Both the position numbers and the translations under genes were made by a program. Below the pieces are notes generated by a model. The model had not been told where the DNA came from, made no database searches, and worked only from the letters and a program-made list of their open reading frames with translations. A stretch of DNA of 64,000 nt from an uncultured Acidimicrobiales bacterium (lineage in GTDB: Bacteria > Actinomycetota > Acidimicrobiia > Acidimicrobiales > SHLQ01): assembly GCA_938041035.1 (NCBI GenBank), contig CALHYX010000029.1, positions 130,150 through 194,149 on the forward strand, in the 5' to 3' direction. This document shows, one piece after another, positions 2,911-6,754 of this stretch (positions within the stretch are counted from its first letter, which is position 1; the number at the start of each line of letters is the position of its first letter).

Positions 2911-5043
2911 ATGGTCTCTGCCGAGAACGCCGTCGAACCACCCCGCCCCTCGGTCGCCGAGGTGGGCGACGAGCTCGCCGCCCATGTGCGGGCGTTGGCC
3001 GGGCCCGACGCCGTACCTCGCCCCGAGCAGATCGCGGCGGTCGAAGCCGTCGTCGCCAACCGACAGCGCACGCTGCTCGTGGCCCGCACCGGCTTCGGGA
3101 AGTCGGCGGTGTACTTCTCGGCCACCCGGATGCTGCGCGATCGCGGCTGGGGGCCCACCGTGGTGGTCTCACCGCTTCTCGCTCTGATGCGCGACCAGGT
3201 CGCCGCCGCCGAACGCCTCGGCCTGGCGGCCGAGACGATCAACTCGTCGAATCTCGACCGCTGGGGCGAGATCGAAAGCCGGATCAACGCCGATGAGATC
3301 GACCTGTTGTTGATCTCGCCCGAACGCCTCGCCAACCAGGGATTCCGCGAGCGGGTGTTCGACGCTCTCATCGGGCAGGCGTTCGCCCTCGTATGCGACG
3401 AGGCCCATTGTATTTCGGACTGGGGCCACGATTTTCGGCCCGACTACCTGCGGCTGCGCGAGCTGATCGCCGGTCTGCCGGCCTGGACGCCGGTACTGGC
3501 CACCACCGCCACCGCAAACGCCCGGGTCACCGCCGACGTCGCCGCCCAACTCGGCGACGACACCCTGGTGCTGCGCACCAGCCTCGACCGGGCGTCCTTG
3601 CACCTGTCGGTGGTCGATCTCGCCACCGACGCCGAGCGCCTCGCCTGGCTGGCCGAGGCCCTTCCCGAGCTCGAGGGTTCGGGCATCATCTACTGCCTGA
3701 CGGTGGCTCAGGCCGAGGTCACCGCCGCCTGGCTGCGCGAACGCGGTTACCCGGTGGCGGCCTACACCGGCGCGACCGAGGCCGAACACCGACCGGCCCT
3801 CGAAGCCGGGCTCCGCGGCAACGAACTCAAGGCGCTCGTCGCCACCTCGGCCCTCGGCATGGGGTTCGACAAGGGCGACCTGGCGTTCTGTGTGCACCTC
3901 GGACTCCCGCCGTCGCCGGTGGCCTACTACCAGCAGGTGGGTCGGGCCGGGCGAGCCATCGACCGCGCCGCCGTGATCGCCGTGCCGCGCCCCGTCGAGG
4001 ACGCGGCGGTGTGGCGCTGGTTCGAACAGGTCAGCCTGCCCCCGGAGTCGACGTGTCGCGAGGTCCTCGACCAACTGCACGCGACCACACCGACATCGAT
4101 CGCGGTGCTCGAGACCTCGGTGAACCTCGGCCGAACCCGGCTCAACACCCTGCTCAGCATCCTCGACGTCGCCGGTGCGGTCGAGCGCACGAAGGGGGGC
4201 TGGATACTCGGCCGGCCGTGGAGTTACGACCACGACAAGGCCGAACGGCTGCGGGCACTGCGGCGGGTCGAGTCCGACGAGATGTTGGCCTTTGGCGCGC
4301 TCGACGGCTGCCGTCTGCGCTACCTACGCGAACGCCTCGACGACGCCGAGGCCGCCGACTGTGGTCGATGCGATCGCTGCCGGGGCGAGGTGGTGGAAAC
4401 CGTGCTGAACCCGGCCCTGGTGGCCGCCGCCCAGACGTTGTTGCGCGGCGAGGACGTGATCGTGGAACCGCGGCGCCAGTGGCCGACCGGCCTCGACGAA
4501 CCCAAAGGCAAGATCGGGCCGCCCGATCGGGCCGAGCCCGGGCGGGCGTTGTGTCGCCTCGGCGACGGCGGCTGGGATTCGGTCGTCACCGCGTTGATGG
4601 CGGCCGAGGAGGCGGGCGAAACCTCGTTGGAGCTGAGCGAGGAATTCCTCCGATCGATCGCCGGCGTCCTCAAACGCTGGCCCTGGGAGGCTCGCCCAAC
4701 CTGGATCTGCCCCGTCCCCAGCCGGCGGCGCCCGCTCCTGCTCGACCGGGTCTGCACCCACCTCGGGGCGCTCGGCAAACTGCCGGTTCACCCCGCACTC
4801 ACCCGCGTTGACGACGCCCGCGGCTGGCAGGCCGACCAGGCCAACAGCGCCCACCAGGTCGCCAACGTGTGGGGCGCGTTCGCCGTCGATGCCGCCGCCC
4901 TGCCCGCCCCGGCGCTCGCGAGCGGGCCCGTGCTGTTGATCGACGACGAGATCGACTCGCGGTGGACGATGACCGTGGCCGCGCATTTGCTGCGCGCCGC
5001 CGGAACGGGAGCGGTGCTGCCGTTTGCGTTGCGGACCCGTTGA
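2911..5043 (+). CDS. recQ: RecQ-family ATP-dependent DNA helicase with C-terminal ComF/GntX-like (degenerate phosphoribosyltransferase) domain
   Basis: Helicase motifs are ARTGFGKS (motif I), LVCDEAHCISDWGHDFRPDY (DEAH box) and YYQQVGRAGR (motif VI). A Zn cluster reads CGRCDRC. The C-terminal ~120 aa carries ComF-like blocks: ICPVPSRRRP, QANSAHQVANVWGAFAV, GPVLLIDDEIDSRWTMTVAAHLLRAAG. Confidence 0.9.
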   Translation: MVSAENAVEPPRPSVAEVGDELAAHVRALAGPDAVPRPEQIAAVEAVVANRQRTLLVARTGFGKSAVYFSATRMLRDRGWGPTVVVSPLLALMRDQVAAAERLGLAAETINSSNLDRWGEIESRINADEIDLLLISPERLANQGFRERVFDALIGQAFALVCDEAHCISDWGHDFRPDYLRLRELIAGLPAWTPVLATTATANARVTADVAAQLGDDTLVLRTSLDRASLHLSVVDLATDAERLAWLAEALPELEGSGIIYCLTVAQAEVTAAWLRERGYPVAAYTGATEAEHRPALEAGLRGNELKALVATSALGMGFDKGDLAFCVHLGLPPSPVAYYQQVGRAGRAIDRAAVIAVPRPVEDAAVWRWFEQVSLPPESTCREVLDQLHATTPTSIAVLETSVNLGRTRLNTLLSILDVAGAVERTKGGWILGRPWSYDHDKAERLRALRRVESDEMLAFGALDGCRLRYLRERLDDAEAADCGRCDRCRGEVVETVLNPALVAAAQTLLRGEDVIVEPRRQWPTGLDEPKGKIGPPDRAEPGRALCRLGDGGWDSVVTALMAAEEAGETSLELSEEFLRSIAGVLKRWPWEARPTWICPVPSRRRPLLLDRVCTHLGALGKLPVHPALTRVDDARGWQADQANSAHQVANVWGAFAVDAAALPAPALASGPVLLIDDEIDSRWTMTVAAHLLRAAGTGAVLPFALRTR

Positions 5044-5110
5044 ACATTTCGTTCGTTCGGTACGACCAGCGGTAGGGTCGCCACGCTCGCTACCCACGGT
5101 CGGAGGCTCG

Positions 5111-6754
5111 ATGCGACGAACATCGATGGGGCAGGAATCCCTGCCGGCGCTCGCCTTGTTGTCGGTCCTCGTGTTGGTCATGGCCGGCTGTTCGTCGAGC
5201 GGCGACTCGGCGAGCCCATCGACCTCGGCCACCGAATCCACACCGCCGTCGTCGCGCGCGGCGCCGACGACGACTCCCCCACCCCCGACGACCAGCGACC
5301 CGGAAACCGGTACAACCGCCCCGTCGAGCGACGGCGACCCGTTCACCCCGGCCACCCCCGAGGTGAGCGGCCCGATCGAAGCCGCCGGCCCCATCGTGCA
5401 ACCACAACCGGCCCTCGCCGCACCCGACGGCTTCGTCGAGGAGGAGTTCTTCATCGGGGGCGAGGCCACTCGCTTCGAGCTGGTCGGCGCCACCGAAACC
5501 GACGGTCGCTGGACCGCGGCACCAACCGAATCGGCGGCCTATCAGACCCGGGTCATCGTGCGTCGACCCCCCGCTGACCGCTTCACCGGCGTGGTGGTCG
5601 TCGAGTGGTTGAACGTGTCCGCCGGCGAGTCCGCCCCCGACTGGGCCTACGTCTCCGAGGAGATCGCCCGGGAGGGACACGCTTACGTGGCGGTGAGCGC
5701 CCAGGCGCTGGGCGTCGTCGGTGGCCAGGCGATCCTTTCGGTCGACGCCGACGACACCACCGGCACGGCTGCGCCGATCAACGATGGCGGGCTCGTCAAC
5801 CTCGATCCGGACCGCTACGGCACGCTCGACCACCCCGGCGACGCGTTTGCCTATGACCTCTTCACCCAGGTCGCCGTTGCGATTCGGACCGTCCCCGCGC
5901 TACTCGATGGCCTCGACGCGACCACGCTGGTCGCCATCGGCGAATCCCAGTCCGCCGGGTACCTCACGACCTACGTCAACGCCGTGCATCCGCTGAGCCG
6001 GGCGTACGACGCGTTCCTGGTGCACAGCCGCGGCGGAGGAGCGACCCCGATCGGCGGCCGGTTCGGCGAGGGGAATGACTTCGTGGACTCCGGCGTGACC
6101 GTGCGCGACGACCTGGACGAGCCGGTGTTCATCGTCGAGGCCGAGACCGACCTGACGTTGCTCGGCTATGCGAACGCCCGCCAGCCCGACACCGACACCA
6201 TCCGAACCTGGGAGGTCGCCGGCACCGCCCACGCCGATGCCCACACGTTCCGGGCAATCTTCGGCGGCCCCCGCGACGCCAGCCAGGGCTCGTTGATCGG
6301 GTGCCCCGGCCTGATCAACAGCGGACCGCACCACGAAGCCGTGCAGGCCGCCCTGCACCATCTGATCGACTGGGCCCGTGACGGCACCGCCCCGCCGGAA
6401 GCCGAACGACTTCAGCTCACCGACACCGATCCGGTTGCGATCGCCCGCGACGAGCGCGGCACCGCCCTGGGGGGAGTGCGCAACCCTCTCGTCGATGTCC
6501 CCGTGGTGATCACCACCGGTGACCCGGTGCGGTCCGCGCCCGAGATCGCGGCCGGATTCGAAGTGTGTGACCTGTTCGGTCAGACCCTCCCGCTCGACCA
6601 ACCGACCCTGGTCGAGCTGCACGGTTCGGCCGACGACTACGTCGCAGCGTTCACCGCCGCGACCACCGCCGCGGTGGAAGCGGGCTTCCTGCTGCCGGCC
6701 GATGCCGAGCAGCTCCTCGAGGAAGCCGAGCAGAATCGCGCCCTGTTCGGCTAA
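5111..6754 (+). CDS. secreted lipoprotein with Pro/Thr/Ser-rich linker and alpha/beta-hydrolase-like domain
   Basis: The ATG at 5111 is preceded by GGAGG. A lipobox is present (LVLVMAGCSS), followed by a PT-rich linker. The motif IGESQSAGYL resembles a nucleophile elbow. The track ORF starts earlier (5024) but overlaps the recQ end. Confidence 0.7.
   Translation: MRRTSMGQESLPALALLSVLVLVMAGCSSSGDSASPSTSATESTPPSSRAAPTTTPPPPTTSDPETGTTAPSSDGDPFTPATPEVSGPIEAAGPIVQPQPALAAPDGFVEEEFFIGGEATRFELVGATETDGRWTAAPTESAAYQTRVIVRRPPADRFTGVVVVEWLNVSAGESAPDWAYVSEEIAREGHAYVAVSAQALGVVGGQAILSVDADDTTGTAAPINDGGLVNLDPDRYGTLDHPGDAFAYDLFTQVAVAIRTVPALLDGLDATTLVAIGESQSAGYLTTYVNAVHPLSRAYDAFLVHSRGGGATPIGGRFGEGNDFVDSGVTVRDDLDEPVFIVEAETDLTLLGYANARQPDTDTIRTWEVAGTAHADAHTFRAIFGGPRDASQGSLIGCPGLINSGPHHEAVQAALHHLIDWARDGTAPPEAERLQLTDTDPVAIARDERGTALGGVRNPLVDVPVVITTGDPVRSAPEIAAGFEVCDLFGQTLPLDQPTLVELHGSADDYVAAFTAATTAAVEAGFLLPADAEQLLEEAEQNRALFG

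Follow-up and report, generated by a model that had tools for sequence, protein, structure and literature searches.

The 64,000-nucleotide (nt) stretch of contig CALHYX010000029.1 analysed here (hereafter the window), from an uncultured Acidimicrobiales bacterium, carries a complete rqlH-type gene at 2911..5043 on the forward strand. Its product of 710 amino acids (aa), followed by a stop codon in the list of open reading frames (ORFs) and in the translation, joins a RecQ-like helicase to a C-terminal ComF-like domain of the phosphoribosyltransferase (PRTase) fold. Judged by its sequence, the gene is a member of the RqlH clade, also called PsyrT. We hold it highly probable that this is a solitary chromosomal copy with a functional tail, for which a role in repair or recombination is favoured over one in a toxin-antitoxin pair.

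An initial annotation had singled out 4678..5043, that is codons 590-710 and the stop codon of this ORF (the last 121 codons), as a ComF-like tail of doubtful catalytic competence on a RecQ scaffold. Its coordinates and quoted motifs were accurate (DEAH, QQVGRAGR, the four cysteines, ICPVPSRRRP from aa 599, NSAHQ at aa 645 and DDEIDSRWT at aa 678-686), and homologue profiles, AlphaFold2 (AF2) and Foldseek all bear out its central observation that a RecQ-type helicase is covalently fused to a ComF/GntX-like PRTase-fold domain. The fusion was also put forward as a new arrangement of a known pairing, and here the literature had come first: the helicase-ComF architecture has been known since 2012, when it was published for Mycobacterium smegmatis RqlH (PMC3378886), and the analogy with ComFA plus ComFC was drawn by Russell & Mulvey 2015 (PMC4670107) and by Iyer et al. 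2017. The window copy is an ordinary orthologue of a known and widely annotated actinobacterial RecQ variant, encoded in at least 595 species.

Family identity and domain layout

Assignment to the RqlH clade rests on a family model, a homologue and the domain architecture. The PADLOC PsyrT model matches the window protein with an E-value of 2.7e-207 (688 bits), pairing aa 26-708 with profile positions 12-682 of 689. A tblastn search against plasmids recovered an Escherichia coli RqlH-type gene on an IncF plasmid, annotated 'RecQ family ATP-dependent DNA helicase', whose product is 41% identical to the window protein across 709 aligned positions (window aa 28-707, E 1e-160). Finally, the architecture of the clade is complete, comprising a RecQ-like ATPase, a spacer of ~90 aa, a tetracysteine module and a ComF-like PRTase-fold tail, with no HRDC domain. 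A protein identical to the ORF product (P0001) is present in NCBI/ENA, and the nearest homologues (67-74% identity) belong without exception to Acidimicrobiales, Ilumatobacter or Microthrix.

The founding member of the clade, M. smegmatis RqlH (MSMEG_5935; 691 aa), was likened to the window protein by its published description: a RecQ-like ATPase (aa 1-346), an RqlH-specific 90-aa linker, a tetracysteine zinc domain (aa 435-499) and a ComF-like C-domain, again with no HRDC (Ordonez, Unciuleac & Shuman, Nucleic Acids Research 2012, PMC3378886). That study located the 3'-5' translocase and helicase activities within RqlH-(1-505), found the C-domain dispensable for them, and reported homologues in more than 50 Actinobacteria and several other phyla. 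The two actinobacterial proteins are similar in length (691 versus 710 aa) and share domain order and spacing; M. smegmatis belongs to the Mycobacteriales, whereas the window protein comes from the Acidimicrobiia and is known from sequence alone.

The RecQ-like superfamily 2 ATPase core lies at 3022..3957 (forward strand, as are all features described below). Pfam recognises DEAD at aa 38-207 (E 2.6e-17) and Helicase_C at aa 252-349 (E 1.2e-14), and helicase motifs I (GFGKS, aa 61), DEAH (aa 163) and VI (QQVGRAGR, aa 341) are all present. The NCBIfam recQ_fam model scores 207.8 bits, slightly below its cut-off of 219.8, while the classical RecQ equivalog TIGR01389 falls well short of its own (243 versus 640.2 bits), with a match limited to aa 37-356. 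A full-length AlphaFold model (predicted local distance difference test score, pLDDT, 85.1; predicted TM-score, pTM, 0.75) retrieved RecQ catalytic cores at the top of a Foldseek search, those of Cronobacter sakazakii and E. coli RecQ (E ~1e-25, 29% identity), and classical RecQ is the best structural match of aa ~30-500.

Between the end of Helicase_C in the ATPase domain (aa 349) and C467, the first zinc cysteine, lies an RqlH-specific insert of ~90 aa (aa 357-445; 3979..4245). The full-length AF2 model predicts three helices and a beta hairpin here (helices 379-388, 397-403 and 408-420; strands 424-427 and 430-433), and Pfam DprA_WH matches aa 377-430 faintly (E 0.2 in the window protein, E 0.00097 in one homologue). 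On the model, the insert looks like a winged helix; if that element is real, it sits ahead of the zinc module, the opposite of the zinc-then-winged-helix order in classical RecQ.

The putative zinc module itself (aa 446-499; 4246..4407) has the cysteine spacing of RecQ, C467-x16-C484-xx-C487-xx-C490. Pfam RecQ_Zn_bind matches aa 446-491 weakly in the window protein (E 0.024) and at E ≤ 0.01 in 10 of 33 homologues (best 1.5e-5). C487 is invariant, and C467, C484 and C490 are each at least 90% conserved (alignment A3). No Pfam HRDC match was obtained in the window protein at E ≤ 1.

The core had been described as a canonical RecQ core, a term made imprecise by the ~90-aa insert, the missing HRDC domain and the score of 243 against 640 bits. 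Compared with classical RecQ, such as that of E. coli, the window protein has the same ATPase core and zinc spacing (Cx16CxxCxxC), lacks HRDC, carries a winged-helix-like element before the zinc module and gains a PRTase-like domain. From the intact motifs and the homology to M. smegmatis RqlH, the protein should be an ATPase and 3'-5' helicase. Its N-terminal ~500 aa (core, winged-helix-like insert and four-cysteine module) would form a self-sufficient motor, with ATPase activity dependent on single-stranded DNA (ssDNA), 3'→5' translocation and duplex unwinding.

The ComF-like tail and its variant loop

The C-terminal domain extends over aa 500-710 (4408..5040). Because searches with the single sequence gave nothing significant, linking it to PRTases and ComF required homologues and structure. 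The window tail had no match in Pfam, matched PRPP (phosphoribosyl pyrophosphate) synthetase alone in NCBIfam (E 0.03-0.1), gave nothing at E ≤ 1 with the ComF/GntX models TIGR00201 and NF008616, and had no match in the PDB by phmmer. Searching with aa 500-710 yielded 94 homologues, of which several were named phosphoribosyltransferase or ComF family at source. When profiles were run on 33 diverse homologues, 18 matched Pfam Pribosyltran PF00156 (best E 2.3e-8), 14 matched NCBIfam GntX (best 1.3e-7) and 14 matched ComF TIGR00201 (best 3.6e-5), making GntX and ComF the commonest families among them, before PRPP synthetases and hypoxanthine-guanine phosphoribosyltransferases. A profile built from the family matched PRPP synthetases in the PDB at E 6e-5, with LLiDDvvDSrWTlT aligned to LVDDMIDTGGTL. 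The Pribosyltran/ComF profile match anticipated by the initial annotation is therefore found in the relatives and not in the window tail by itself.

Structure prediction points the same way. AF2 folded aa 500-710 into a single compact unit (pLDDT 96.1, pTM 0.91), and the 50 Foldseek matches listed against the PDB were exclusively PRTase-fold proteins. Among them, Helicobacter pylori ComF (7p0h_A) ranked second with the top query TM-score of 0.54 (probability 0.99, 220 columns), ShosT (PDB 8ZVD) ranked twenty-first, and PurR and PyrR were also present. Together with the homologue profiles, we regard the type I PRTase fold of the tail, with its ComF-like N-terminal strands, and its ComF relationship as solid. 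The affinity to ComF noticed in the last ~120 aa is real; on the AF2 model, however, the folded unit is the whole of ~210 aa. The tail averages 57% identity inside Acidimicrobiia and 41% against other taxa, values close to those of the linker and the zinc module, which argues that the tail is not decaying.

With ComFC and GntX the tail has in common the PRTase fold and three sequence blocks: (V/I)PVP..., Q....N..Q..N..GAF.V, and four hydrophobic residues followed by DD. ComFC differs in being a stand-alone protein of ~190-250 aa that has a zinc finger of its own and whose canonical loop, DDIITTGTTL, binds PRPP and nucleoside monophosphates (H. pylori 7P0H, PMC9005727), whereas the window tail is fused to a helicase, carries the loop DDEIDSRWTM and stays below every ComF model threshold.

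That loop is the most distinctive element of the tail. The variant PRPP-loop motif VLLIDDEIDSRWTMT (aa 674-688; 4930..4974) was read directly from the sequence and compared through a motif census, conservation analysis and alignments. The stretch DDEIDSRWT (aa 678-686) departs from DD-x-x-T-T-G-x-T, as had been noted before: the acidic pair and the final threonine remain, while DSR stands in place of TTG. Across 214 homologues, the loop reads DSRWT in 159 and DSGWT in 13, and nearly all others are near variants, so that ~200 of the 214 have DSRWT or something close to it. In 74 full-length proteins (the window protein and those of 73 species genomes), D678, D679, D682, S683, R684, W685, T686 and T688 are each at least 95% conserved.

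Mutants in two other systems bear on the same residues. The window motif VLLIDDEIDSRWTMT aligns to VLLVDDIVDSGWTLT of the E. coli RqlH-type protein, the two sharing VLL(I/V)DD-x-x-DS-(R/G)-WT-x-T, and by this alignment the DIVD motif mutated in E. coli corresponds to D679-E-I-D682 of the window protein. In E. coli RqlH, D663A and DIVD663EVME, both in the putative PRPP pocket, abolish toxicity (PMC4670107). T686 of the window protein aligns with T165 in the H. pylori ComFC loop DDIITTGTTL, and ComFC T165A abolishes nucleotide binding (PMC9005727). Loop conservation and the E. coli mutants together indicate that the loop is a fixed family signature and that the pocket is probably functional rather than a relic. 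The verdict 'probably catalytically degenerate' is at odds with a loop that is at least 95% conserved, with the retained acidic pair and threonine, and with the loss of toxicity in the E. coli pocket mutants.

The most likely mechanism is one in which the helicase carries the tail. The C-terminal ~210 aa, a ComF-like PRTase-fold domain unnecessary for motor activity, would be a working module for ligand binding or catalysis and not a decayed domain. Carried along ssDNA by the helicase, the tail would there bind a ligand containing ribose-5-phosphate (PRPP, a nucleotide or a DNA end); it would either modify the DNA or handle it.

A possible, though clearly less probable, alternative is that the tail is a dead PRTase fold, serving as a scaffold, an interaction surface or a PurR/PyrR-like nucleotide sensor that regulates the helicase. 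The substitution of TTG by D-S-R would fit such a domain, as would the existence of regulatory PRTase-fold proteins, the appearance of PurR and PyrR among the Foldseek matches of the tail, and the case of ComFC, for which no catalysis is known (PMC9005727). The tail is, moreover, dispensable for the motor (PMC3378886), and E. coli RqlH deprived of its PRTase domain no longer interacts with its partner RqlI (PMC4670107). Against this stands the strong conservation of the acidic pair, of the threonine equivalent to ComFC T165 and of the loop as a whole. A mere scaffold is further contradicted by the conservative change DIVD to EVME, which eliminates the genotoxicity of E. coli RqlH (PMC4670107) and so points to a precise ligand-binding or catalytic pocket; a sensor role is compatible with the same result.

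Genomic context and the role of solitary copies

The PRTase domain makes RqlH genotoxic in extraintestinal pathogenic E. coli unless the DprA-like protein RqlI holds it in check, and deletion of that domain abolishes RqlI binding (Russell & Mulvey 2015, PMC4670107). The same authors observed that Gram-positive bacteria often carry rqlH without rqlI. RqlHI is the same pair as the PsyrTA defence system (Sberro 2013; Millman et al. 2022).

We scanned one genome per species for the peptide pattern [IV]DDxxDSRWT, which was derived from an alignment of 8 sequences, and found a relative with this motif encoded in at least 595 species. Locus analyses were made on the best 80 of these species loci, which come mainly from Acidimicrobiia and Actinomycetes, and also from Chloroflexi, Pyrinomonadaceae, Pirellulales and Planococcus. 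In the ~73 of 80 loci with enough DNA upstream, the motif is part of an ORF of ~700 aa or more; shorter motif ORFs stand mostly at the ends of the available DNA, with a 394-aa ORF at locus L034 as the exception.

A PsyrA gene directly follows in 4 of the 80 loci (L047, L066, L070 and L072; PADLOC PsyrA E 1e-80 to 6e-134). A hidden Markov model (HMM) built from these four verified PsyrA proteins detected none in the six-frame translation of the 64-kb window and none in the remaining 76 loci. Clustering of neighbouring ORFs revealed no conserved partner gene among the actinobacterial loci. In the window, the neighbours encode a major facilitator superfamily transporter, an ammonium transporter, an Abhydrolase_10 protein, a 3-hydroxyisobutyrate-dehydrogenase-like enzyme, malic enzyme and a glycosyltransferase, the ammonium transporter gene lying directly upstream of the rqlH-type gene and that of the Abhydrolase_10 lipoprotein, a secreted hydrolase, directly downstream. 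The absence of an adjacent RqlI/PsyrA and these housekeeping neighbours make a repair or recombination helicase more likely than a toxin-antitoxin module: for the solitary copy, a repair or recombination role is most likely, a defence-toxin role unlikely and a competence role very unlikely.

Should the window protein nevertheless be the PsyrT/RqlH toxin of an anti-phage PsyrTA/RqlHI system, its PRTase would damage DNA once a DprA-like antitoxin had been titrated during infection. PsyrT is indeed the best PADLOC match of the window protein, PsyrTA is described as defensive by Millman et al., and genuine toxin-antitoxin pairs occur in relatives (the four PsyrA loci above and L082) and on the E. 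coli IncF plasmid. We give this reading a slim chance, however, since neither the 64-kb window nor 76 of the 80 related loci contain a PsyrA-like ORF, the neighbouring genes serve transport and metabolism, the actinobacterial loci share no conserved partner, and solitary rqlH genes in Gram-positive bacteria were already documented (PMC4670107). Unlike E. coli RqlHI/PsyrTA, the window gene is not followed by a DprA-like RqlI/PsyrA and lies outside any defence island; on the E. coli plasmid, the gene lies between hsdS and hsdR and a DprA-like gene overlaps its end.

ShosT, the toxin of the ShosTA system, likewise has a PRTase fold and a DprA-like antitoxin, and PRPP binding is needed for its toxicity (PDB 8ZVD; PMC11961720, PMC12961424); it differs from the window protein in possessing a pyrophosphatase domain and no helicase, and is remote in sequence.

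Slighter still is the chance that the protein works in competence as the counterpart of ComFA and ComFC in a single chain, drawing in and handling transforming ssDNA: ComF/GntX are the named families nearest to the tail, ComFC binds ssDNA and partners the ComFA helicase (PMC9005727), and the RqlI partner in other taxa is DprA-like, but the helicase is of the RecQ and not the ComFA type, no competence genes adjoin the window gene, the ComFC-type PRPP loop is not retained, and among the carriers M. smegmatis and E. coli no RqlH-dependent transformation is reported, the E. coli phenotype being genotoxicity (PMC4670107).

Several points nonetheless weigh against a solitary repair helicase with a functional tail. 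The TTG found in catalytic PRTases and in ComFC is missing from the loop, which leaves PRPP binding putative, and no biochemical activity is reported for any RqlH or PsyrT tail. Taken alone, the window tail has no significant profile match, and its Foldseek E-values are modest (3e-3 to 1e-1). The likeness to M. smegmatis RqlH is one of length and domain layout. The antitoxin search covers the 64-kb window, so that a distant RqlI, a classical RecQ, DprA or ComFC may lie elsewhere in the genome; within the window, family HMMs found no second RecQ-like or ComF-like gene. Literature searches on the mechanism or structure of PsyrT/RqlH turned up, for the years after 2015, surveys and ShosTA studies only, and PDB searches made for the tail and the full-length protein gave no structure of an RqlH tail or of an RqlH-RqlI complex.

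The window gene is thus an unremarkable orthologue within a family known since 2012 and catalogued in defence-system databases, with relatives publicly annotated 'RecQ family ATP-dependent DNA helicase', and the chemistry of the tail is a question for the entire RqlH family rather than for this window. We know of no acceptor substrate for either ComFC or ShosT. What the census adds is that actinobacterial copies, the window one included, are almost always solitary and in non-defence contexts among the best 80 of at least 595 loci, and that the variant loop of the toxic proteobacterial copies under RqlI control is strictly conserved in them too. These solitary copies in non-defence settings, with the same conserved loop, support a functional pocket and raise the question of how their hosts tolerate it.

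A doubtful extension is that the DD-x-x-D-S-R-W-T loop of these 595 or more species marks a PRTase fold that has left classical use of free PRPP and, taken along ssDNA by its helicase, acts on DNA instead, in Actinomycetota as a housekeeping repair activity that needs no DprA-like antidote. Such a tail might, for example, bind 5'-phosphate or ribose-phosphate ends, or phosphoribosylate or remove bases; this would apply to the family as a whole and not to the window protein in particular.

Adjoining genes and related loci

In the window, the Abhydrolase_10 ORF downstream of the rqlH-type gene was called at 5024..6754, with a mechanical TTG start that overlaps the rqlH stop by 20 nt. Its translation contains an internal methionine followed by a lipoprotein-like signal, LVLVMAGC, from which the true start is probably near 5111, with no overlap with rqlH.

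Two stand-alone proteins of 232-233 aa with zinc and PRTase parts, P0165 and P0186, were considered as free ComFC-like tails and rejected, since tblastn located the helicase part upstream in other frames; they are frameshifted or mis-called full-length rqlH genes and not a separate architecture. Both lie on long contigs (L081, 3647..5696, and L082, 3679..5678), and at L082 a DprA-like gene overlaps the 3' end.

A clear defence-island setting was seen at L083, on the E. coli IncF conjugative plasmid NZ_OX030731.1 (34388-42457). The gene order there is hsdM, hsdS, rqlH, dprA-like, hsdR, such that rqlH and an overlapping gene annotated 'DNA-processing protein DprA' are nested in a type I restriction-modification operon.

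Some PADLOC models labelled 'DpdF' also recognise the window protein. PDLC02866 and PDLC02869 match the zinc and PRTase tail alone (aa 470-707, E 2.5e-30, and aa 640-708, E 1.1e-13), and several further DpdF models match the helicase core with up to 288 bits. Certain of these clusters therefore appear to include RqlH-like sequences, and mislabelling could follow.

Lastly, two haloarchaea, Halanaeroarchaeum sulfurireducens and Halomicrobium salinisoli, carry full-length RqlH-type genes on plasmids (hits H7, H9 and H11; ~40% identity over 96% of the query). The RqlH family thus reaches beyond the Bacteria, presumably by horizontal transfer.

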